This document shows, one piece after another, positions 13,309-44,245 of a stretch of DNA of 44,245 nucleotides (positions are counted from its first letter, which is position 1; each line of letters begins with the position of its first letter). This DNA is from a virus (taxonomy: Duplodnaviria; Caudoviricetes). The notes below the pieces were generated by a model. That model made no database searches and was not told the origin of the DNA. It saw nothing but the letters and a program-made list of their open reading frames with translations. Position numbers and translations under genes: made by a program. Where the stretch lies: positions 1 through 44,245 of the IMG/VR virus record IMGVR_UViG_3300032103_000107; one strand, written 5' to 3'.

Positions 13309-16300
13309 ATGAGTTTGGATAGTAAATTTATTGTTTTTTGCGAGAAAATACCCGATGCTGACAAATATTACGTCAGATTTCCCTATAATAAGGAACTTGT
13401 AGAGAAAATAAAGGGATTACCACCTAAACAAAGGTCATGGAATCCATCTCAAAAGGTATGGGAAGTTAGCCCTGCAGGATTATTTACCGTTATTTTAGCC
13501 TACCGTAAGTCTGAGCTAATCTTTTTTGATTTCATGGGTGATGATAACAAAAAAGAATTCATCGCTCTAACCCAAAAAGAAGATGAAAAAGCGAAGAAGA
13601 AGGTTTCTGATCTAAAGAAACAGCTTGAAAAGAACGATTTAGCCATTAAGTTTAAAAAGCAGTATGAAGAAAATCCACAGCAATATGCTGATAGGGTTTT
13701 AAAAAATCTCAAAGAGGGCGTTCAGTTATTTAATCATCAAATAGTTGGTGCATTATTTACCGAATATGTTGGTAGTGCATTACTTTCACTTGAGATGGGG
13801 CTTGGTAAAGCCGAGAATGTTAATTCAAAATTATTAACACCCAATGGATGGATAAGAATGGGTGATGTAAAAATTGGCGATCAAGTTATTGGTTCTAATG
13901 GTAAACCATCTAATGTAGTTGGTGTTTATCCACAAGGAGAAAAAGATATATATAGAGTTTGGTTTAATGATGGTTCATTTGTTGAATGTTGTGATGAACA
14001 TCTATGGGCAGTAAATTCTCCAATGAGAATTTGGAGAAGTAAAACTGGTAATAAAAATTTTCCTTACAGAATATTAACGCTTCGCCAGATAATGGATGAG
14101 GGATTGACAATGAAAAATGGTAATAGAAAACACTATATACCAATTGTTGAACCAATTGAATTTAATGAAAAAAAACTTATAATTCATCCATATTTATTAG
14201 GGTCATTGTTAGGTGATGGATCAATAACAACAAAAAACAATGTTATATTTTCTACTGGTGATTATGAAAGTATTGAATTAATAAAGGAAATTTTATATAG
14301 TGGTAATACCATTCAAAGAAATACATCACGCATATATGATTATAATATAACAAGTAAAACAAATAGAAATGAAATAAATCGTGAGTTAAAAAGATTAAAT
14401 TTAAAGGGTTGTAATTCATACACAAAATTTATACCTAATGACTATAAATTTGCTTCAATAGAACAAAGATTGGAATTATTAAGGGGTTTACTTGACACTG
14501 ATGGTCATATTTATAAAGATGGATCACACATTGAAATAACATTAGCATCTAAACAATTAATTGAAGACTTGCAATTTATTGTTCAATCTTTAGGTGGAAT
14601 CGGTAGAATTAAAGAGAAATGGGTCACATATAAAGGTGAACGAAAAATGTATTATAGAATGGGCGTTAAATTACCCCCACAATTTATACCATTTAAATTA
14701 TCTCGTAAGATAGAGAGATATAAGCCTGTAACTAAATACTTACCATCAAGAGCAATTTCAAAAATTGAATATGTTGGTAGGGAAGAAGCTCAATGTATTG
14801 CAGTTGATGCACCAGATCATTTATATGTTACTGATCATTGTATAGTAACGCATAATACGCTTATCTCTATATCTTTTGTAGAGATGAAAGATTTTGATAA
14901 GGTATTCGTTATTACACCCAATAGCTTAAAATTTAATTACTTTAATGAAGTAAAGAAATTTACAAATTCAAAAGCACATATAATAGGTAATAAAAACAAT
15001 GAATATGATATTAAAGAATCAAAGTATATTATCTTCAATTATGAATTTTTCAATAAAAGTAATAGTGATGCTATCGAAAGTAAATTAAAAAAATTAGGGT
15101 TGGATTTTTTACCTAAATGTATAGTAGCAGATGAATGTTTTACATATGACACATTAATAGATACTGATAATGGTAAATTAAAAATTGGTGATATTGTTGA
15201 AAATAAATTGAATGTTAAAATATTATCCTATAATCATAAGTTAAAAAAAATTGAAAGAAAATCAATTAGTCGGTATTTATGTAATGGATATAAAGATATT
15301 GTTAGAGTTAAATTTAATAATGGTGATACTATTGAATGTACTTCTGACCATAAATTTTATTCTTTAACTGAAAATAAATATAAACCAATAAAAGAATTTA
15401 CTTATGGTGAAAAACTATATAGAAAGAAAGAAAAAAATACAAACGAAAGAAATAGATTGTTTGAATTGCAAGAAAATCCTCAAACAAAAAAGAAGCAACC
15501 AAAAGTTTTGCTCAAAAAAATGCTCTGTGAATTATACTTCAAAAGAAAATGTGATCAAATCATTAATTACGAGGAAATTAAACGGAAATTTAGTGGAAAA
15601 GATAAAAAGAAATTGTTTTGTTTGTGGGATAGAATTTTTAATAAGAAGAACGATGAAAAAAAGATTTTGTTCACACAGTTGTTCAGCAATATGGAGAATG
15701 TCTCAGAAACAAATCAAAGAAAAAGTTCACAACAAAGAAACATACAAGAAAATATCGAAAAGTCGAACATTAGCTTTACAGAAGAATCCAGAGTTAAGAG
15801 AAGCAATTTCATTAAGAATGAAAAAACACAATCCAATGTTCAAAATGCAAAATATAGAAAAAATGAGAGAAAAAATTATTGGTCGAACATTTTTATCAAG
15901 AGGTGGAAATGGTCAATTAACAAAACAACAATTAAAACTTTTCTCATCAATATCAGGAATAACATATATGAAAATGGAATATTCAATACCAGTAATACAA
16001 CAATTGAAAGAAATGAATATAAAAATAGACTCACCACCAACACATTACAAAGTGGACATTGGAATTCCATCTCTGAAATTAGCAATAGAGATAGATGGGA
16101 ATACACACAAAACAAAAAAATGGAAGTATTTAGATTATCGAAAAACAGAGATATTGAAATTGTTTGGTTGGAAAGTATTGAGGTTTTGGAATCAGGAAAT
16201 AGACGAAAACTTGGAGAAAGTGGTGGAGAAAATAAAAAAGTTTATGATTTAGAAATTAATGATAATCATAATTATTTCGCTAATAATATTTTAGTGAGTA

Positions 16301-17307
16301 ATTGTCATAAATTAAAAAATACTAAAGCAAACACCTACAAAAACTTTAAGAAGTTATTTAAAAAAGTTGAGCATAAGGTATTCTTATCAGGTACACCAGC
16401 ACCTAATAGAATATACGAATTATACACCACACTAAATCAGATATCACCAATAGAATTTGCAACAAAGAAACATTTTCTTGAGTATTATTGTGGAATGGTT
16501 TTTAATAATGAGATGATGACTTGGGAAACACATAACATGCCTAAGTTAGATGAACTTTATAATAAGCTATCTGCATATACATATAGAAGAAGAAAAGAGG
16601 ATGTTCTTGATTTACCAAAAAAAATGTATCAGAAAATATGCATTGAGATGGATGATAATCAAATAGATGAGTATAGAGAGATTGAAGAAGGTGTGGTTGA
16701 AGAAATTATGTTTGGTAATGTTCATCAAACACAATTAAATCCGTTAACTGTTTTAATTAGGTTAAGACAATTCACTGCCAAACAAAAAATAAAAATGGTA
16801 GCCGAATTGATTGAGAGATTAATAGAAGAAGATGAGAAAGTTGTTGTTGTGGATATGTTTAAACAGAACTTATATGACTTACATAAATTATTTCCAAACA
16901 TTTCAGCAGTACATACTGGTGATCAAACCGTAGAAGAAAGGAATATTATTGTCAGTAAATTTCAAGACTCAAATAGTGATTTAAAACTATTTTTAGGTTC
17001 TGTGCAAACATGTAGTTACGGATTGACCTTGACAGTATCAAATAAAATGTTTATTATTACACTTCCATTTAGTGTTGGAGAATATGATCAGGTAAGCGAT
17101 AGGATTCATCGCATAGGGCAAAATAGCCATGTTACCATATTTATACCCCAATTAATGGGTACAATTGATGAAAAGGTATATGATTTGATTGATAGTAAAA
17201 GAAAAGAAATCTCAAAAGCAATAGATAATGTTGACTTTCAATCTAAGGTTTCTGAGTCAATTTTAAATGATTTAATTGGAAGTTTAAAAAAGAAATATGT
17301 TCGTTAA
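13309..17307 (+). CDS. SNF2-family helicase with N-terminal HARP-like domain and two inteins (1332-aa precursor, ~594 aa spliced)
   Basis: Motif I EMGLGK|T, motif II DE|CH, motif III LSGTP, motif VI QVSDRIHRIGQ; N-terminal RFPYNKELVEKIK...WNPSQKVW. Confidence 0.93.
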   Translation: MSLDSKFIVFCEKIPDADKYYVRFPYNKELVEKIKGLPPKQRSWNPSQKVWEVSPAGLFTVILAYRKSELIFFDFMGDDNKKEFIALTQKEDEKAKKKVSDLKKQLEKNDLAIKFKKQYEENPQQYADRVLKNLKEGVQLFNHQIVGALFTEYVGSALLSLEMGLGKAENVNSKLLTPNGWIRMGDVKIGDQVIGSNGKPSNVVGVYPQGEKDIYRVWFNDGSFVECCDEHLWAVNSPMRIWRSKTGNKNFPYRILTLRQIMDEGLTMKNGNRKHYIPIVEPIEFNEKKLIIHPYLLGSLLGDGSITTKNNVIFSTGDYESIELIKEILYSGNTIQRNTSRIYDYNITSKTNRNEINRELKRLNLKGCNSYTKFIPNDYKFASIEQRLELLRGLLDTDGHIYKDGSHIEITLASKQLIEDLQFIVQSLGGIGRIKEKWVTYKGERKMYYRMGVKLPPQFIPFKLSRKIERYKPVTKYLPSRAISKIEYVGREEAQCIAVDAPDHLYVTDHCIVTHNTLISISFVEMKDFDKVFVITPNSLKFNYFNEVKKFTNSKAHIIGNKNNEYDIKESKYIIFNYEFFNKSNSDAIESKLKKLGLDFLPKCIVADECFTYDTLIDTDNGKLKIGDIVENKLNVKILSYNHKLKKIERKSISRYLCNGYKDIVRVKFNNGDTIECTSDHKFYSLTENKYKPIKEFTYGEKLYRKKEKNTNERNRLFELQENPQTKKKQPKVLLKKMLCELYFKRKCDQIINYEEIKRKFSGKDKKKLFCLWDRIFNKKNDEKKILFTQLFSNMENVSETNQRKSSQQRNIQENIEKSNISFTEESRVKRSNFIKNEKTQSNVQNAKYRKNERKNYWSNIFIKRWKWSINKTTIKTFLINIRNNIYENGIFNTSNTTIERNEYKNRLTTNTLQSGHWNSISEISNRDRWEYTQNKKMEVFRLSKNRDIEIVWLESIEVLESGNRRKLGESGGENKKVYDLEINDNHNYFANNILVSNCHKLKNTKANTYKNFKKLFKKVEHKVFLSGTPAPNRIYELYTTLNQISPIEFATKKHFLEYYCGMVFNNEMMTWETHNMPKLDELYNKLSAYTYRRRKEDVLDLPKKMYQKICIEMDDNQIDEYREIEEGVVEEIMFGNVHQTQLNPLTVLIRLRQFTAKQKIKMVAELIERLIEEDEKVVVVDMFKQNLYDLHKLFPNISAVHTGDQTVEERNIIVSKFQDSNSDLKLFLGSVQTCSYGLTLTVSNKMFIITLPFSVGEYDQVSDRIHRIGQNSHVTIFIPQLMGTIDEKVYDLIDSKRKEISKAIDNVDFQSKVSESILNDLIGSLKKKYVR
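13810..14856 (+). mobile_element. Intein 1 (349 aa, class 3 type) with LAGLIDADG homing endonuclease, in Walker A
   Basis: Starts AENVNSKLLTPNGW and ends IVTHN|T. WCT triplet present (EHLW, AQCIAV, VTHN). LAGLIDADG motifs LLGSLLGDG and LLRGLLDTDG. Confidence 0.92.
15136..16302 (+). mobile_element. Intein 2 (389 aa, class 1) in Walker B, with an out-of-frame endonuclease
   Basis: Starts CFTYDTLIDT; block B IECTSDHKF; block F VYDLEINDNHNYFA; ends LVSN|C. Removing it restores DECH. Confidence 0.92.
15404..16252 (+). CDS. Zn-finger plus Vsr/DUF559-like endonuclease (282 aa), nested in the +1 frame of intein 2
   Basis: Two CxxC...FCSxxC fingers. C-terminal YKVDIGIPSLKLAIEIDGNTH...D..K...LKLFGWKVLRFWNQEI. 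Confidence 0.88.
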   Translation: MVKNYIERKKKIQTKEIDCLNCKKILKQKRSNQKFCSKKCSVNYTSKENVIKSLITRKLNGNLVEKIKRNCFVCGIEFLIRRTMKKRFCSHSCSAIWRMSQKQIKEKVHNKETYKKISKSRTLALQKNPELREAISLRMKKHNPMFKMQNIEKMREKIIGRTFLSRGGNGQLTKQQLKLFSSISGITYMKMEYSIPVIQQLKEMNIKIDSPPTHYKVDIGIPSLKLAIEIDGNTHKTKKWKYLDYRKTEILKLFGWKVLRFWNQEIDENLEKVVEKIKKFMI

Positions 17308-24717: not shown

Positions 24718-24753
24718 AAAAGCTCATAGTTTAGTGCTGTGGGCTTTTTTTTT
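24718..24753 (+). terminator. Intrinsic terminator-like hairpin
   Basis: AAAAGCTCATAGT-TTAGT-GCTGTGGGCTTTT stem (three G.U pairs), ending in a T9 run. Confidence 0.6.
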
Positions 24754-24766
24754 AATAAAAAACGAT

Positions 24767-27700
24767 ATGTTAGATAATTCAGAATTTAATAGTCCAGTTT
24801 CACCTAATGATGAATTACGTGATTTAAATAGAGAAGATGAACTTCAAAATATTCAGCCCCCATTTGATGATCATTATTTGTGGGCAATTGAGCCAGAAAA
24901 AGTGTCTGAAAATATAAACAATAAAAAAATCAGTGATAAACTAAAAAGAACGGTTCAATTTATTGAAAAGGTATCGGATTATAGTGAGTTTAATAAAGAG
25001 ATATTGTATAGATACTACAATGATGTAAAATATAACATAAAAAAAGCAATTAGTATGGTTAATAATGAGCCAATGTTTTACGAAAAATTAATGCAATTAA
25101 AAAATTATTTAAATACATTAGATATTAATGAAGATGGTACATCATTATATATGGCTACTGACGGTGTTGTTGAAAATGAACTAACAAGTACATTTAATGT
25201 TGAAGATTTAAAAAATATAAAATCATATAAGGGTAGAATTTTTTATTTAAAAAATAAACTACAATTATTAGGTCAGGGTAGCAGTAGAATAGTTTTTAAA
25301 ATAGATAATCAAAAAGTAATTAAAGTTGCTAAAAATAGTAAAGGTATTGGTCAAAATTTTTTAGAAGCCGAGATTGGTCAAGATAATTTTTTTATTGAAG
25401 TAGTTGCTAAAGTCTATGATTATGATCTTGATTTTGTATGGATTATATCTGAATATGCATCTAAATTTAGTGAGGCTGAATTTAAGAAAATTGAAGGTTA
25501 CGATTTTAAAACATTTGGTCTATATTTAACTAGTGAAAAATATGGACATAATTGGGAACAACAAGTTACTCCTGAAGAGCATGATGCTTTTATTTATCCA
25601 AAATCACCAAATTCATTTGCTACAAATATTAAACAATTAATGAGAGATTATAACATGCCAGTTGGTGATTTGGTTGTTAAATCATCATATGGTATTTCAA
25701 CTAAAAATAGAGAATGTGCTGTTATATTAATTGATTATGGTATAGATGAAGATGTATATAAATCTTATTACTCTAAAATTAAAGAACAAATTCTTAGAGA
25801 AATGATGATGTATCTTAAAGATGAACAACCAATTGATGAAAGAAAATTATCGTATATGCCAAACAGTTCTTCAGTTGAAGTTAAACAGAATTGTCGTTTA
25901 GCTGGTAAATCAGATAGAACAAGTGATGCATGTAATCAAGGTGATATTAAGAATTTAAATTTAAGACCTATTAGAGAAAATTCAGATGCTGATTATAAAA
26001 AATGGAAGAGAGATAATGTAACATATAGAGGTATATCAGAAGATTCTGTTGATGGCGAAAATGGTGGAATGGCTATGCTTGGTCAAGGGTTATATAGTGT
26101 GCCAGCATCAAATAAAGCTATGGCAAGAAAATATGGTAAATTGGTTATGTTGGTTAACGCTAAACCTAAAAATCCTAAAATTTTTAATACATTAAATGAT
26201 TGGGAAATATGGTTTCAATATAATGTTGTATTTCCAATATCAAAAGCAAAAGGTAAAGATTATCCAGATGGTAGAGATGTAAATTCTATATCAGAAGAAA
26301 TGATGAAACGTGGATATGATGGTGTTGTAATTAAAGGTCGTGAAATTGTAAATTATAAACCTGAAGATGTTAGATATTATTATAATGAAAGACAATTGGA
26401 AATGCATTATGATTTTTATGTAGCACCTAATAAAAATAATATTAATGAAGCTAATGGTGATGGAAACAAAATGAAAAAAACGGTATTAACTAATTTTTTA
26501 AATAAATTAGAAGCATACCAATCAAATTATTATGATAATATTGATAAAAATGATTTAGTTAATGCATGGAGAATTTTGCATCTAAAAGCTAAAGAATATA
26601 TTAAACCAAATCCAAAAGAATTAAATAATTTATATAGAGGTGCTGATGAGGTTTTGTCAAAAAAAGCTGTATCATTTACATCAAATAAAAACTACGCTAA
26701 ATTATCTGGTACATACGTATTACCTTTTAGTGAACTTCAATCATATGAAGGATTAATATCAAAAAAAAGGGTTAATAAATTAATTGACGGATTTAAAATA
26801 GATTTTAGTATTAGTGATCATGAAGGTGAAGTAATTGTTTTAAATCCTGTATGGAAAAAATTTGATATTGAAAAATATAGAGTATCAGAACTGGTGGAAG
26901 ATTTATCATACATGCACGTGGATAATGCTGCACCAGAACAAGACAAATACATGATGGGATTAGAAGAATCAATGACTAATCGTATAATAAAAAATGTTAT
27001 TGGATATCATGGTACTGACAGTGAATTTGATATTAATAAGGTGGGTGAAAATACTGGTAATTATGGTCATTATGGTTATGGTATTTATTTTAGTGATGAT
27101 GAAAGAGAAGCAAAAACATATGGTAATATTGTTAAAAAATATAATTTAACTATAACTAATCCTTTTACTGGCACTGATGATGAATATCTAAAATTAAAAG
27201 ATATGGGTTGGAATGTTGGTGATTATGGTAAAACCAATATTAAATTTACTGAATTAATTAATGATACTAAGGATCAAGAAGTAAAGTATTTTATGGTATG
27301 TTTACTTAAATATAAAAATAATGCTTGGGAAGAATTTTGGAAAAAATATCCAAACAATAAAAATGATTATTTGAACGACTTATATAATTTATATGAAATG
27401 TCAGATGCAAGTGGACATGACGATGGTGTAAATGAGACTGCCATTCAAATGATTTTAGATAATTTAAATTCTGTTGGTATAAAACTCAATCCAGAATATA
27501 ATTTTGGATTTTTATATAAAACACCACTTCATTATATTACTAATACAGGGGAATATGGAAAACAATTAACAAATGATCTTAAAAAATTGGGGTATGATAG
27601 TGTGATATATGGATCGGAAATAGTTATTTTTGATCCCAAAAATATTAAATTTATTAATTACGTAACACCTATACAAGACAAATACATGATGGAATTGAAA

Positions 27701-29416
27701 GAAGGCGATAATAGAAATGAGATGGTCTATTGGCATGGTGGTAATTTAGATGATTATAGTGAAACAATCGCTCAAAGAAATGGTAGATATGAATTTGGTG
27801 CTGGATTATATATGACAACAAGTTATGAGGTTGTTAAAAAATACACTAAAGGAAGTAGAAAATTATATAAGATTACTGTAGAGAGGGGTGTTGATATAAA
27901 TGATGCATTTATTGATTTAGAAAAAGCATTAAATTTTATTAACACATATGTTTTAACTGCTAAAAGAAAATCTATAATAGAATATCTTAGCAAATATATT
28001 GAAGATGGAAAAGTACCTGCTAATATCTTTAATAATTTAATATTAAATCATAAGGCGATACCGTCTACAAAAACTAAAGAATTAAGAAATTTTCTTATAA
28101 TTAATGGTATTGATTATGAGATTGTAGATAATGCATTTGGTTTTGGTGAAAAAATGATGGTTCTTTACAACATGAAAAAAATAAAAGATGTAAAGAGAAT
28201 AACATCAAAAGATAAAATTGATAATTATAATTTATTAGATGAAAGCATATCTGATATAGTGAATTTGTCATTTAAACAAGAGATTGAAAATATTGGTGGT
28301 AAATTATATTCTGTAGGTGGTGCTGTAAGAGATAAATTCTTGGGTAAAGAATCTAAAGACCTTGATGTATTAATTACAGGAGTATCATTTGATCAACTTG
28401 AAAAACTTTTATCTAAGTATGGTAGAGTTGATGCTGTTGGTAAATCATTTGGTATTTTGAAATTTAAACCACAAGGATCATCAGAAGAAATTGATATTGC
28501 AATTCCGAGGACAGAAAAAGCTACTGGTGAAGGTGGACATAAAGGATTTGAAGTCACTTCTGATCATGCATTACCAATTGAAAAGGATTTGGAGAGAAGA
28601 GATTTTACTATAAATGCAATAGCTAAAGATGCTGCAGGTAATGTAATTGATCCTTATGGTGGTCAAGAAGACTTAAAGAATAAAATAATTAGAATTGTTA
28701 ATCCTCAAGCATTTTCAGATGATCCATTAAGAATGCTTAGAGCAGTGCAATTTGCAGCACGTTTTGATTTTACGATAGAACCTAAAACAGAACAATTAAT
28801 AAAAAGTAATTCATCAAGAATTAAAGAAATTCCAGCAGAAAGAATCTTAACTGAATTAGATAAAATAGTTAAAAAGGGAGATGTACTATATGGTGCTGAT
28901 TTATTAAGGGAAACAGGACTTTATGTACAAATATTTGGTTCTAAGTCACCAGTTGGTTTTGAGGATCATTGGGATTTAGATGCATGGAATAATGTAAAGA
29001 CTATGGGTGAATATATTTATTTACTAGCTTTTCCTGTACAGGAAAATCCTGCTGAATTCTATAAGAAAGCATTGAAGGGTGATATACCAACATATAAGGA
29101 AATTCTTGCATTACATACAGGATTTAAAAATGTTAGTGAAAACCCTATAAAAAATAGAGTTGTAGCCCATAATATGTATACCATATATCCAGAATCACTT
29201 AACAGTAAGATATTACCAAAACCGTTATTAATTGCTGCAAACGAGTTAAATTCTGGTAAATATCCAAAAGGATTTAAAGAATTAGCTGTTACAGGAAATG
29301 ATTTAATTAATAAAGGTTTATTTGGTAAAGAGTTGGGAGATAAATTGAAAAAAATGCTATTATCTGTTTATTCTGATGCCGCAAAAAATTATAGAAATGA
29401 ATTATTAAATTTCTGA
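24767..29416 (+). CDS. Polyvalent protein: kinase-like domain, four ART-like domains and a CCA-adding/poly(A) polymerase-type nucleotidyltransferase (~1549 aa)
   Basis: Kinase: LGQGSSRIVF, VIKVAK, IDYG. ART-like starts: TYRG, LYRG, GYHGT, YWHGG, with GxGLY/IY and GYDGV-type motifs. NTase: VGGAVRD, DLDV, DLERRDFTINA, DPLRMLR. ATG 24767 is preferred because the track GTG at 24734 lies inside the hairpin. Confidence 0.85.
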   Translation: MLDNSEFNSPVSPNDELRDLNREDELQNIQPPFDDHYLWAIEPEKVSENINNKKISDKLKRTVQFIEKVSDYSEFNKEILYRYYNDVKYNIKKAISMVNNEPMFYEKLMQLKNYLNTLDINEDGTSLYMATDGVVENELTSTFNVEDLKNIKSYKGRIFYLKNKLQLLGQGSSRIVFKIDNQKVIKVAKNSKGIGQNFLEAEIGQDNFFIEVVAKVYDYDLDFVWIISEYASKFSEAEFKKIEGYDFKTFGLYLTSEKYGHNWEQQVTPEEHDAFIYPKSPNSFATNIKQLMRDYNMPVGDLVVKSSYGISTKNRECAVILIDYGIDEDVYKSYYSKIKEQILREMMMYLKDEQPIDERKLSYMPNSSSVEVKQNCRLAGKSDRTSDACNQGDIKNLNLRPIRENSDADYKKWKRDNVTYRGISEDSVDGENGGMAMLGQGLYSVPASNKAMARKYGKLVMLVNAKPKNPKIFNTLNDWEIWFQYNVVFPISKAKGKDYPDGRDVNSISEEMMKRGYDGVVIKGREIVNYKPEDVRYYYNERQLEMHYDFYVAPNKNNINEANGDGNKMKKTVLTNFLNKLEAYQSNYYDNIDKNDLVNAWRILHLKAKEYIKPNPKELNNLYRGADEVLSKKAVSFTSNKNYAKLSGTYVLPFSELQSYEGLISKKRVNKLIDGFKIDFSISDHEGEVIVLNPVWKKFDIEKYRVSELVEDLSYMHVDNAAPEQDKYMMGLEESMTNRIIKNVIGYHGTDSEFDINKVGENTGNYGHYGYGIYFSDDEREAKTYGNIVKKYNLTITNPFTGTDDEYLKLKDMGWNVGDYGKTNIKFTELINDTKDQEVKYFMVCLLKYKNNAWEEFWKKYPNNKNDYLNDLYNLYEMSDASGHDDGVNETAIQMILDNLNSVGIKLNPEYNFGFLYKTPLHYITNTGEYGKQLTNDLKKLGYDSVIYGSEIVIFDPKNIKFINYVTPIQDKYMMELKEGDNRNEMVYWHGGNLDDYSETIAQRNGRYEFGAGLYMTTSYEVVKKYTKGSRKLYKITVERGVDINDAFIDLEKALNFINTYVLTAKRKSIIEYLSKYIEDGKVPANIFNNLILNHKAIPSTKTKELRNFLIINGIDYEIVDNAFGFGEKMMVLYNMKKIKDVKRITSKDKIDNYNLLDESISDIVNLSFKQEIENIGGKLYSVGGAVRDKFLGKESKDLDVLITGVSFDQLEKLLSKYGRVDAVGKSFGILKFKPQGSSEEIDIAIPRTEKATGEGGHKGFEVTSDHALPIEKDLERRDFTINAIAKDAAGNVIDPYGGQEDLKNKIIRIVNPQAFSDDPLRMLRAVQFAARFDFTIEPKTEQLIKSNSSRIKEIPAERILTELDKIVKKGDVLYGADLLRETGLYVQIFGSKSPVGFEDHWDLDAWNNVKTMGEYIYLLAFPVQENPAEFYKKALKGDIPTYKEILALHTGFKNVSENPIKNRVVAHNMYTIYPESLNSKILPKPLLIAANELNSGKYPKGFKELAVTGNDLINKGLFGKELGDKLKKMLLSVYSDAAKNYRNELLNF
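26938..27692 (+). repeat. 20-bp direct repeat flanking the third ART-like domain (26938-26957 and 27673-27692)
   Basis: ACAAGACAAATACATGATGG occurs twice, 735 nt apart and in frame (QDKYMM). Confidence 0.9.
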
Positions 29417-41007: not shown

Positions 41008-41018
41008 TTTTATAAAAA

Positions 41019-44000
41019 ATGGCAAAAGTTCGTGTTATTAATAAAGGTCAAAATGCTGATTTAATTGGTGGTAATTTTACCAATGATGCGTCACAAACAA
41101 TCTTTAGTCTTGGCGCATTTTCTATTCAGTCTAATTTTACTGGTAGAAAAGTAACCAAATATGAAAATAAGATAACATCTTTTGTTACACCAATAACACT
41201 TGAAAATCTTGAATTAACTCAAACTGAATCTGAAAGTATTGTATTATTAACATCTAATGTAGTTTTAAATCTTGATAGATCAGATTTAAAATCTTATGCT
41301 AAATTTGGTTCTGCTAAAGAAATATTGAGAGTTTCTATTCAGGAAATTATAAAGAAATTTCCTGCAAGTTTACACGCATATAAGAATATAGCTGTGAATG
41401 GTAATTTTACAGTAGGTAATTTTGTTTATGATCCATTAACAAATATATCAACATTTCAAGTACCAAAACAATTTGTAGATAACAAGTTTGGTATTGTAAC
41501 ATCAAGAAATAATTTTGCAACACCAGATAACTCAGAATTACGTAATCTTAATTTATCATATCAAAATTATGTTATTTGGAAAGGTACTGATCCAGATAAT
41601 AATACTCATTATATTCTTGGATATACTGGCAATACACCACAATATCAATTCTTATCATTTAAAGTTCAGGGTAATCCATTTCCAGAAATTAGTGCTAATA
41701 CTGCTATTACTGCTAGTATCAATTACCATATTAAACCAGACCCAAGACAGTACAATTTATTTTATTCATCATTAGAGCCATTACAAAAACATTTATTAGC
41801 TAAAAGAACCGATGATAATACTGGATTTATAACGGAATTAAAAGAACCAGTATTATTAGATAATGGTGAAACTATTTTTATTGATAGAATATTTAAATGG
41901 GAAACATTTGATAATTATAATGTTGATATTGATAGTCCTCAATACTCGCTGTATTTAATTAATTTAATGAATTTAGGTGAACTATATGATGGCTTCAAAA
42001 CTGATTTGGTATATAGAATGCTAACAACATCATCTATTAAAGCATATGACCAAACAGATGAAATGAAAATGTCTAAGTTACTTAGAATCTATGGTAGAGA
42101 ATTTGATAATATTAGACAATATATTGATGCAATAGCATATGCTAATACTGTTACATATAATAAAAAGAATAACTTATCTGATACCCTTGTTAAGAATTTA
42201 GCTAAAACATTAGGTTGGAATACAGTTAATTTAGTTTCAGATGAACAATTAGCTGATGCATTTTTTTCACAGGTAGAAACCGAAGAAAATCAAGTAAAGT
42301 TACCATTTGAAATAGATATTGAATTGTGGAGAAGAATTATTATAAACACAAATTATTATTGGAAATCAAAAGGCACTAAAGCATCATTAAAATCAATGCT
42401 ACGTCTTATTGGTATTCCAGAACCATTTGTTGATATAACAGAATATGTATATACTGTCGATGGTAAAATAAATCCTAATACAGTAAATTTAACATTAGAA
42501 GATATTGGTACACCATCATTTCCATATAATAGTAAAGGATACCCTATTGCACCTAAAGAAAATAATGATTTCTTTTTTCAAATTAGTGGTGACACTGATG
42601 GTGGTCAGGAATATATTAATGTATTTAGAAGAGTAGGATTTTCAGTTAATAGAATAGTTGATAATAAAAAATCTTGGGAAGAAGCTGGATTTGTTCAAAG
42701 ACAACATTATTCATCACCAGCATACTTTCAACGTGATAGTAAATTAATTATTAATACAAAAGAAATTGATGCAACTCTTGATACTGCAAGAGGTATTGAA
42801 TTTGATGTTTATGAATATAATAAATTAACTAACTATCCTATAAGTACTACTGGTGTTACTAAACCATATTTATATATCAACATACCATTCACATATGGCG
42901 CAAATACTAACACTTTTACAATTATTAGTGGTGACATCGCATTAGGAAATATACAAGTTAATTTTAATGGTATTACTTTAGAAAAAGACGTTGATTATAT
43001 TCAATTAAATAGTACTACGGTTCAACTTACAAGTGAGATAGCTAAAATATATAGTAATGGTTCTAAAGATGTAATTACATTAACATATATGCATGACAGA
43101 TATAATGGATTGTCAGGTGATTATTCTGCAATACAATATATTGTGCTATCTATAGTTGCATTACCGAGTGGTATTGAAATCCCTTTACCGCCTAATTATA
43201 CTATTAGTAATAGTAGTGATATTCAATTAACAGTTAACGGTATTTCATTAACAAAAAGTACATCATTATTTACTGGTGATTATATTATTGCTCCCACCAA
43301 AGATAAAATTATTGTTCAGAACTCAACATTAATGAGTTATTTACAATCAAATCCAACAGTAGTAATATCATATATACAACAATTTAATGACGAAAATTTA
43401 CAGAAAAAATTTGAGGTACATAGAGTAGATTCCTTTTCATCAATTAAATTATCATTTAATGCAGGTATTAATAAATTCATATATAGTATGGATTATGAAG
43501 CCATTGCAATAGATGCTATTAAGGTCACTGTTAATGGTATAACACTTCAAAATGGAACTGATTTTACTCTTAATTCTGGAAATAAATATCAAATATTTTT
43601 ACCACCAGCATTAAATTTTGGTGATATAATTGGTGTATATTACGTTGTTGGTTCTGGTATTACATCATCGTTCTTACCACCTAATTTAATATTCCCTAAT
43701 GTTAGTGAATTAAGTTTTTTAGAATACCTTGAATTAATAACTAGAAAATTAATTAATGCCAAAACAAGAAAAGTAATTACTGATCATAATGGTGGGTTTT
43801 ATCCAACTGTATTAAAAATATATGAAGAATACTTAAGAGTAAGTTTTTTACCTAAAGATAATTTTTATCATAGTAATGGGTATACATTTAGTAATGTGTT
43901 TCCATTTATAGCTAAATTCAGTACTTTCTTTGAAAGATTTATTATTGATTTACTACCAGCAACTGTTATACTAAAGAAAGGTGGTACATTAATTAGAAAT

Positions 44001-44245
44001 ACGTCATTTACAAGACAAAAATTTGTATATAAAAGAGGTGTAAATTTTACTCCATCTTTAGGATGGCTAGGTGATGATGGTAGTGAGTTTAAAATTAAAC
44101 AATCAGAAAAAATATTTAGCTGGACAGATGCAAGTGTTTGTATTATCGAAGAGGTATTTATATTACCAACTACTACTACAACCACAACTACTGATGCACC
44201 TACAACTACCACTACTACTACAACAACTACCACTACTACAACAAC
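41019..44245 (+). CDS. Large baseplate wedge/tail protein (>1075 aa), runs off the window; not in the ORF track
   Basis: ATG 41019 reads MAKVRVINKG. Contains WRRIIIN..YYWKSKGT (gp7/gpI-like) and three V..NGI(T/S)L...D(Y/F) repeats. No stop was found, and it ends in poly-Thr. Confidence 0.8.
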   Translation, partial: MAKVRVINKGQNADLIGGNFTNDASQTIFSLGAFSIQSNFTGRKVTKYENKITSFVTPITLENLELTQTESESIVLLTSNVVLNLDRSDLKSYAKFGSAKEILRVSIQEIIKKFPASLHAYKNIAVNGNFTVGNFVYDPLTNISTFQVPKQFVDNKFGIVTSRNNFATPDNSELRNLNLSYQNYVIWKGTDPDNNTHYILGYTGNTPQYQFLSFKVQGNPFPEISANTAITASINYHIKPDPRQYNLFYSSLEPLQKHLLAKRTDDNTGFITELKEPVLLDNGETIFIDRIFKWETFDNYNVDIDSPQYSLYLINLMNLGELYDGFKTDLVYRMLTTSSIKAYDQTDEMKMSKLLRIYGREFDNIRQYIDAIAYANTVTYNKKNNLSDTLVKNLAKTLGWNTVNLVSDEQLADAFFSQVETEENQVKLPFEIDIELWRRIIINTNYYWKSKGTKASLKSMLRLIGIPEPFVDITEYVYTVDGKINPNTVNLTLEDIGTPSFPYNSKGYPIAPKENNDFFFQISGDTDGGQEYINVFRRVGFSVNRIVDNKKSWEEAGFVQRQHYSSPAYFQRDSKLIINTKEIDATLDTARGIEFDVYEYNKLTNYPISTTGVTKPYLYINIPFTYGANTNTFTIISGDIALGNIQVNFNGITLEKDVDYIQLNSTTVQLTSEIAKIYSNGSKDVITLTYMHDRYNGLSGDYSAIQYIVLSIVALPSGIEIPLPPNYTISNSSDIQLTVNGISLTKSTSLFTGDYIIAPTKDKIIVQNSTLMSYLQSNPTVVISYIQQFNDENLQKKFEVHRVDSFSSIKLSFNAGINKFIYSMDYEAIAIDAIKVTVNGITLQNGTDFTLNSGNKYQIFLPPALNFGDIIGVYYVVGSGITSSFLPPNLIFPNVSELSFLEYLELITRKLINAKTRKVITDHNGGFYPTVLKIYEEYLRVSFLPKDNFYHSNGYTFSNVFPFIAKFSTFFERFIIDLLPATVILKKGGTLIRNTSFTRQKFVYKRGVNFTPSLGWLGDDGSEFKIKQSEKIFSWTDASVCIIEEVFILPTTTTTTTTDAPTTTTTTTTTTTTTT
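44169..44245 (+). repeat. ACN trinucleotide repeat encoding poly-threonine
   Basis: Mixed ACT/ACA/ACC codons run to the end of the window, interrupted once by DAP. Confidence 0.9.

Follow-up and report, generated by a model that had tools for sequence, protein, structure and literature searches.

Introduction

Endonuclease genes that lie out of frame within inteins are already known from cyanobacterial dnaX and from actinophages. Phillips, DeSimone and Gogarten (bioRxiv 10.64898/2026.09.14.751524) described a cyanobacterial dnaX intein with an overlapping LAGLIDADG open reading frame (ORF) on the sense strand and with frame-specific selection, and Gosselin, Arsenault and Gogarten (bioRxiv 10.1101/2025.01.02.630785) reported actinophage inteins with antisense LAGLIDADG, antisense Vsr-like and frame-3 endonuclease VII genes. 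Here, we analysed a stretch of viral DNA of 44,245 nucleotides (IMG/VR record IMGVR_UViG_3300032103_000107; in the following, the window), in which an SNF2-family helicase gene holds two inteins and the second of them, intein 2, is overprinted in the +1 frame of the same strand by an ORF for a predicted Vsr/DUF559-type nuclease with zinc fingers. Both preprints cite Gorbalenya (1998). An initial annotation, made from the sequence alone, had considered the layout possibly undescribed, which can no longer be maintained in view of the out-of-frame intein nucleases in these preprints.

The dnaX type resembles the window intein in its overlap on the sense strand (the '+2 ORF' of that paper, which we read as the same one-base shift), in its disordered filler and in purifying selection on the nuclease frame, and further in a putative Shine-Dalgarno (SD) sequence and in the coexistence of full, mini and empty alleles. 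In the sequence comparison made here, cyanobacterial DnaX mini-inteins occupied the same DE/CH site as intein 2 (the slash marks the insertion point); 151 cyanobacterial genomes were searched, and the 30 loci kept included DnaX mini-inteins and not one full dnaX intein. In contrast to the LAGLIDADG nuclease, the one host gene and the one phylum of the dnaX type, the family described here combines a Vsr/DUF559 nuclease and zinc fingers in SNF2, ResIII/DEAD and UvrD helicases and in non-cyanobacterial DnaX. Moreover, the layout is described as rare in the dnaX paper, which mentions no doubly constrained 3' overlap like the one present here.

The actinophage inteins likewise are complete and have their nuclease, in some cases a Vsr-like one, in a separate ORF; there is evidence that their transfer continues, and their origin is explained by the same model. 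Their Vsr-like nucleases are antisense and their sense type is the frame-3 endonuclease VII, whereas the window nuclease is encoded in the sense +1 frame; their hosts are DNA polymerase, minor capsid, terminase and thymidylate synthase genes, whereas helicases and DnaX are the hosts here. The same text expects same-strand ORFs to be able to enter the frame by indels, whereas no member of the present family is in frame.

Three other systems share parts of the layout. I-Bth0305I (Taylor et al., 2011, PMC3239194) has the same C-terminal Vsr fold, the invariant residues E, D, E, H and D and N-terminal DNA-binding modules, but it carries NUMOD repeats and belongs to a group I intron, whereas the window nuclease has zinc fingers, lies over an intein and has a shifted His, at 20-25% identity. 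The same paper describes an E, D, H, D motif for the EDxHD family, and a DUF559 gene is filed under EDxHD in PMC9403480. In the fractured genes of Dassa et al. (2009, PMC2677866), a Vsr-like nuclease lies between intein halves and overlaps the C-half with its 3' end, a layout that three relatives found here (L133, L137 and L153) match exactly and that the contiguous window intein does not show; a route from dual coding to fracture is absent from the model in the accessible text. ShiLan (Arsenault et al., 2025, PMC11855218), found in phage methylases, is a nuclease hidden out of frame under a stop-free host frame, like that of the window, but it is of the HNH type and has no splicing domain, whereas here a Vsr-type nuclease is combined with one. 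We found no published sense +1 Vsr/DUF559 nuclease in helicase inteins, in a search that left most subscription papers outside and with preprint supplements that may list cases.

Results

The host gene (13309..17307, plus strand) encodes a precursor of 1332 amino acids (aa) with two inteins and matches SNF2-rel_dom and Helicase_C in Pfam and the DNA helicase family PHROG 62. Intein 2 (15136..16302, plus strand; 389 aa, Cys610-Asn998) interrupts Walker B, or motif II (ADE/C...SN/CH), and its removal restores the helicase DE/CH motif. Its splicing blocks are normal, as initially stated: Pfam Intein_splicing is matched above the cut-off (E 1.1e-11), and the class 1 features are present, with Cys at position 1, the TxxH of block B (TSDH), the Asp of block F (VYDLE), a terminal Asn and Cys at +1. 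The penultimate residue is Ser (Ser-Asn) instead of the His that is usual, although not obligatory, in class 1 inteins. The intein is contiguous, its own frame is free of stops and holds no in-frame nuclease, and the three reverse frames have 13-35 stops each.

The +1 frame is closed over the N-terminal splicing region (15136..15403, plus strand), where its last stop is a TAA at 15389, and opens into the overprinted ORF of 282 aa (15404..16252, plus strand). This ORF runs from ATG to TAG and encodes the two zinc fingers and the nuclease domain recognized initially: two CxxC...FCSxxC fingers (Cys pairs C19/C22, C36/C40, C71/C74 and C89/C93), a helical linker with NPM and RGGNG motifs, and a Vsr/DUF559 domain that matches DUF559 in Pfam at aa 200-280 (E 6.8e-16). 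Both ends lie where the initial annotation had placed them, the probable start ATG (15404..15406, plus strand) being built from the intein Tyr-Gly codons TAT GGT in FTYGEKLY, without an SD sequence, and the stop lying within GAT TTA GAA of VYDLE. The intein frame underneath encodes a 'shadow' peptide (15464..16164, plus strand), stop-free and weakly conserved (33-46% identity to orthologues), and then enters a doubly coding segment (16165..16252, plus strand), recognized from the sequence, from a codon test and from a strand kept in the mini-intein L004, in which the nuclease GWKVLRFWN...KFMI and its stop are written over the intein WLESIEVLE...VYDL. The ORF does occupy the endonuclease slot, but does not fill it exactly, as had been proposed, since these last ~29 codons overlap the C-terminal splicing part of the intein. 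An AlphaFold model of the intein frame from a single sequence was uninformative on the shadow peptide, with a predicted local distance difference test score (pLDDT) of 34 throughout, in the splicing domain too.

Both frames are genuine and chance is excluded. When the nuclease was recoded with the codon usage of the window, 32.3 ± 3.7 stops were expected in the intein frame, where none is observed, and 0 of 20,000 trials were stop-free; recoding of the intein frame gave 11.1 ± 2.3 expected stops in +1 and, again, 0 stop-free results in 20,000 trials. The longest open stretch in an alternative frame is 100 codons among seven other long genes of the window and 39 codons in intein 1. The claim that sequencing frameshifts could not have produced the two frames was borne out by their both being open over ~280 codons and by three studies whose contigs show no indels: that of run X1, which is possibly the source sample and so not independent, is identical to the window over 14900-16600, and two further studies are gap-free over parts of it (X2, 15372-15597 and 15936-16085; X3, 15460-15671).

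Conservation differs between the frames, the nuclease frame being better conserved. Its identity exceeded that of the shadow peptide in 109 of 109 close pairs, 66 mid-range pairs gave identities of 0.63 in the nuclease frame vs 0.41 in the intein frame, and nucleotide changes were highest at nuclease codon position 3. This comparison, which uses identity and not formal dN/dS, supports purifying selection on the nuclease frame. In the window, codons of the nuclease ORF that precede AA, AG or GA never end in T (0/108, vs 55/173 other codons). Pooled over the 164 clusters of relatives introduced below, 0 of 9,287 at-risk codons end in T vs 5,475 of 21,864 others (25%), compared with 168 of 654 at-risk codons in the 11 copies that are free or split; these and the following codon counts treat related loci as independent and are uncorrected for kinship. 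The intein frame is kept open in this way, so that its middle is filler selected to stay stop-free.

At the 3' end, where GWKVLRF lies over WLESIEV and the nuclease stop over VYDL, the mini-intein L004 retains the strand as VESIEV. Codon choice is strongly biased at bases that leave the nuclease residue unchanged but decide the intein residue. The Leu of GWxVLRF is encoded by TTR in 146/154 cases vs 897/1,805 for other Leu, and the bias persists at a GC content of at least 50% (51/52 vs 171/564 other Leu), while intein-free copies use TTR in 4/18 (4/6 among the strong ones). The third base of the Val is a purine in 149/159 vs 346/598, and the Gly is GGG in 143/161 vs 271/1,028. These patterns show that bases in the 3' overlap are constrained by both frames. 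With such bases common to both genes, the initial proposal is not supported as far as a full uncoupling of homing from splicing is concerned. The nuclease is likely locked out of the intein frame, because a move into it would cost the nuclease its last strand and helix, or the intein its strand and block F, and this lock would explain the lack of in-frame members.

The nuclease frame, modelled by AlphaFold with a 50-sequence alignment, reached a mean pLDDT of 91, with a predicted template modelling score of 0.50, so that the relative placement of its domains is not fixed. Its N-terminus forms treble-clef/FCS-like zinc fingers, and residues 167-282 have the Vsr-type fold, matching 3HRL with Z 12.3, the catalytic domain of I-Bth0305I (3R3P), the nearest characterised fold, with Z 11.2 (root-mean-square deviation 2.6 Å, 91 residues aligned) and Vsr (1CW0) with Z 10.4. 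The top Foldseek row was 3R3P (E 1.1e-3), which was also matched by profile (E 0.008). The putative catalytic residues E192, D218, E229, H235 and D244 (15977..16135, plus strand), whose role is assigned by analogy with I-Bth0305I and Vsr, are invariant in 50/50 aligned homologues, and ExxGxxH is retained in 163 of 164 clusters; the His stands one column earlier than in 3R3P, one residue nearer the Gly. No NUMOD family was found for the +1 ORF at a Pfam E of 0.1, the NPM helix region not having been directly compared with NUMOD profiles. With the composite E, D, H, D motif present, the +1 protein would be an EDxHD-like nuclease, active by analogy.

Relatives were gathered with the nuclease alone, three wide scans contributing the best 80 of 365, of 452 and of 155 relatives, two of these three totals being 'at least' values. 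Among 245 sequences including the window, 224 were strong matches (at least 75 bits on the nuclease profile), and intein profiles were run on all six frames. As many as 196 of the 224 lie in the +1 frame within a complete, stop-free intein, and none lies in frame or in +2, so that homologues out of frame in inteins with both frames open, which the initial annotation had proposed to look for, are the usual case. The other strong matches comprise 11 with the C-part only and one with the N-part only (also +1, mostly at contig ends), four with stops in the intein frame, one frameshifted and 11 intein-free copies, and the 21 weak matches are 20 intein-free DUF559 genes and the mini-intein L004. Pfam Intein_splicing was found in 13/13 sampled host-frame proteins (3 below the curated cut-off). 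A search for in-frame fusions among proteins of 495-2000 aa, itself a weak blank, yielded among 196 candidates only P0107, a frame-switch product. A regular expression for block-F shadow tails was insensitive (45/106 database proteins, 55/164 known nested copies) and was not used.

After removal of 4 loci with fewer than 6 upstream residues, the remaining 192 fell into 171 clusters at a nucleotide identity of 99%, into 164 at 90% and into 158 at 80%. The 164 clusters consist of 69 viral, 49 metagenome and 45 genome loci and the window, with GC contents of 26-64%. Host proteins are SNF2, ResIII/DEAD and UvrD helicases, helicase-methylase fusions and DnaX, and the insertion sites are DE/C (113), DE/S (17), DExx/ (17), DExxx/ (15) and two variants of the same motif. 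In 35 of the 164 clusters the family uses a position two or three codons later in the DExH motif, and these sites are intermixed in the nuclease tree (65 rows picked from 177; 17 of 62 starred, bootstrap not settled). Deep branches of this tree are weakly supported, and so we claim neither a root nor an order of site switching. Cys1 and the terminal Asn are present in 164/164 clusters, with His-Asn in 101/164 and Ser-Asn in 59/164 at the end. Cultured phages are represented by 40 matching records (37 Vibrio, 2 Corynebacterium, 1 Pseudomonas). In six GenBank phage records both frames are open (6/6) and only the helicase is annotated (6/6), so that standard annotation does miss the nested ORF.

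Across the family, stops close the +1 frame in most of the N-terminal splicing region, and it becomes open a little way ahead of the first zinc finger, which begins a median of 23 codons past the block B His. An ATG lies upstream of the first CxxC in 153/164 clusters, at a density of 0.06 per codon in the 20 codons before the finger vs 0.01-0.03 in the 60 after it. A strong anti-SD match precedes 33.6% of 232 candidate ATGs, whereas the share in two control sets is 14.3% (1,108 internal Met) and 13.7% (1,112 ATGs in the +1 frame of exteins; p ~3e-5), the SD often being formed by Gly-Asp/Glu codons of the intein itself and hence not wholly independent evidence. In each of the eight orthologues at the window site, a stretch of six codons contains an ATG, which takes one of two positions; the mini-intein L004 has none. 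A strong SD match is found at 0/25 other gene starts of the window, where the leaders are A-rich; gene starts without SD are typical of Bacteroidota hosts. A sigma-70 scan gave 10 sites vs 12.2 ± 3.1 in shuffles, no terminator was found, and no hairpin over the start is common to the eight orthologues. The initial suggestion of independent translation thus gains support across the family from the enrichment of ATG and SD, and is weak at the window locus.

Full, mini and empty alleles were found among relatives, as expected of the mobile element proposed initially. Of 11 loci related by their C-extein, one is filled (L253 = L002), nine were read as empty by script and L254 gave no row; the intein 2 site is empty in L251, L252, L255, L257, L259-L261 and others, and L251, without both inteins, is 85-88% identical to the window in nucleotides. 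In comparison with seven orthologues, the window shows identities of 61-75% in the N-terminal and 55-82% in the C-terminal splicing part and of 49-61% in the exteins. Phage phi673 is filled and phi674 empty, according to PMC6132909. Over flanks that are 98-99% identical, the two differ at 7 positions within the 100 nt directly 3' of the site and at 0-3 per 100 nt elsewhere, a cluster such as a co-conversion tract would give. In Vibrio phages, full (K391), mini (K459) and empty (1.024.O) alleles occur in exteins that are 89-94% identical. The splicing domain of the K459 mini-intein (L312:1801-3882) looks unlike that of the full K391 intein, the exteins being 91-94% identical. The Walker B codons look alike across host classes, and we infer that they are the target.

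Several relatives represent other states of the cassette. L004 (79-612 and further 3') has a mini-intein at the window site with a short +1 remnant of the nuclease ends; the same gene holds a further LAGLIDADG-like intein near the helicase C-terminal motif (QVSDR/C). Three loci (L133:414-2657, L137:1364-3598 and L153:2-1702) are helicase genes fractured by a split intein, with the same type of nuclease lying across both halves in +1. Their intein N-half is followed by a stop, the former filler frame contains 15-22 stops, and the ATG of the C-half lies inside the 3' end of the nuclease. The three loci form a clade (99/85) in an unrooted tree, and because its sister is the contiguous L139 (99/94), the topology favours a fracture that came after dual coding. 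Free-standing copies are scattered in the nuclease tree (L124, L130, L164 and L194 include supported sisters of nested copies), and one of them, L176:2375-3096 from Polaromonas, lies between transposase and toxin-antitoxin-like genes and carries a near-open filler frame and a block F remnant. Finally, L272:2472-3263 is a related intein at the helicase DE/CH site with a +1 ORF of 264 aa for LAGLIDADG_2 (E 7.7e-25), led by a C2H2 finger and without Vsr, which links the window intein lineage to the cyanobacterial dnaX type.

Discussion

We consider it probable that intein 2 is a dual-coding, frame-locked homing intein. The +1 protein would be a homing nuclease translated from its own internal start codon, and the helicase precursor would splice out intein 2 together with the filler peptide. 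The nuclease would bind via its zinc fingers and cut intein-free alleles at the Walker B/DExH codons, and repair of the cut allele would copy the whole cassette. The frame would be uncorrectable, the final strand and helix of the nuclease sharing bases with the C-terminal splicing part of the intein. The observed part of this mechanism comprises the open frames, selection on the nuclease frame, the codon constraint in two frames at the 3' end, the one frame of the family and the empty, mini and full alleles.

Several observations weigh against this mechanism. The nearest empty alleles carry Ser (L251) or Val (phi674) at +1, and these two may be resistant rather than targets. The trees of the nuclease and the splicing domain agree with a rho of 0.26 (best of 200 permutations 0.07) and have the nearest neighbour in common in 91/164, so that the nuclease may have been swapped between inteins. 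The best fold match, 3HRL, is an uncharacterised Neisseria protein, and DUF559 holds many proteins outside mobile elements, 20 weak and 11 strong matches here being without an intein. The codon counts carry the kinship mentioned above, and the intein profiles were seeded from the same loci on which they were run. At the start, the window ATG lacks an SD (-0.9 kcal/mol) and, at the 81st percentile of other ATGs on a profile of 25 gene starts, is not singled out; in five orthologues another ATG, five codons on, is used or is present as well, and this one is ATA or otherwise lost in the window, and an A7 run at 15431-15437 could permit slippage.

This weak start context and the A7 run leave some room for the nuclease to be made, where the N-terminal splicing region ends, by +1 ribosomal frameshifting or by slippage during transcription, as an extein-InteinN-nuclease fusion ending in block F. 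Runs of A6 or longer in 15/162 leaders vs 4/162 controls, and the 11 of 164 clusters without an ATG before the first CxxC, would fit such a product, but no slippery motif is common to the family (A7 or longer in 5/162, CTTAGG in 0/162), the density of ATGs peaks before the zinc finger and is accompanied by SD enrichment, the mini-intein L004 lost its ATG together with the nuclease, and free-standing copies of the nuclease exist. We therefore regard frameshifting as unlikely, and internal initiation, provided that the protein is expressed, as very probably the better reading.

Somewhat less likely still, the nuclease could be a parasite of the intein, with the DNA of the mini-intein or some other site as its target and with a mobility independent of the splicing domain. 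The modest congruence of the two trees, the LAGLIDADG_2 ORF in the same slot and frame of L272 and the several places of free-standing copies in the tree would agree with this, and a secondary invasion of a mini-intein is what Phillips et al. propose for dnaX (10.64898/2026.09.14.751524). However, the 3' end of the nuclease is written on the splicing domain, without which it cannot move alone, the escaped copy L176 carries its block F remnant along, and full and empty alleles occur in near-identical exteins.

It is quite improbable that the +1 protein is expressed without driving homing, whether it has a role in phage recombination or phage exclusion instead or is a relic in slow decay. The functions of DUF559 proteins are mostly unknown and the nearest empty alleles differ at +1, but the catalytic residues are kept, the distribution is patchy, the splicing parts are more alike than the exteins among orthologues, and the element has spread across unrelated P-loop hosts at one motif.

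That assembly or sequencing errors moved an in-frame nuclease out of frame, for which one might cite the single-record proteins P0039, P0074 and P0107 that join the nuclease to intein or extein parts across a frame switch, deserves practically no credence and is refuted at the window locus by the 280 codons open in both frames and the gap-free contigs of three studies, as it is elsewhere countered by the same frame at 196 loci and in cultured phages, none of the three proteins being a complete in-frame intein and P0039 having an intact dual-frame near twin, L269. Two further single records, L011 and L101, likewise contain a frame switch or one stop, from assembly errors or decay.

Beyond the homing intein at this locus, we would entertain, at somewhat less than even chances, a wider proposal: the Walker B/DExH intein lineage across P-loop ATPases might be an obligate dual-coding cassette in which both proteins need the same 3' bases, out-of-frame nucleases might be the rule and lie hidden by the hundreds in annotated genomes, the slot might swap Vsr for LAGLIDADG, and the cassette might give rise to fractured genes with split inteins and to DUF559 genes that stand alone. 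Both preprints call out-of-frame intein nucleases rare, whereas one sense Vsr type is found here in at least 164 distinct viral and bacterial elements. A specialist would be surprised by how large the family is and how many hosts it has, by the strictness of its frame, by the double constraint on the 3' end and by the derivatives that are split. Many inteins regarded as 'decayed' or 'long mini' may be active homing elements, and the nucleases of the family would be a rich source of EDxHD-like enzymes that are targeted by zinc fingers. The family provides a natural case of ~250 codons of double coding with a clear selection pattern in each frame; the common 3' bases offer a reason why the nuclease never entered the frame, and the split relatives bear on the origin of split inteins. 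Expression and homing are open to direct tests in phi673 (filled) and phi674 (empty), a cultured pair with exteins that are 98-99% identical and with a harmless host.

Other Features of the Window

Intein 1 (13810..14856, plus strand; 349 aa) lies at Walker A (GLGK/A...HN/T) of the same helicase, with Ala at position 1 and an in-frame LAGLIDADG nuclease (LAGLIDADG_3, E 8e-14). Its layout is ordinary, the other two frames having 31 and 58 stops and no open alternative, so that one helicase gene combines a canonical intein with a dual-frame one. The intein 1 site is filled in L003 and empty in L251 and L252. The window is likely part of a large phage, because relatives occur on contigs of up to 325,854 bases and because a family B polymerase and a baseplate wedge protein are encoded. 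At 24734-29416, a polyvalent-type protein of 1560 aa contains a poly(A) polymerase/CCA-adding domain, with a weak match, below the cut-off, to ART-PolyVal (ADP-ribosyltransferase). The last ~3.2 kb (41008-44245) hold just two ORFs of at least 80 aa, which is odd in a gene-dense window.

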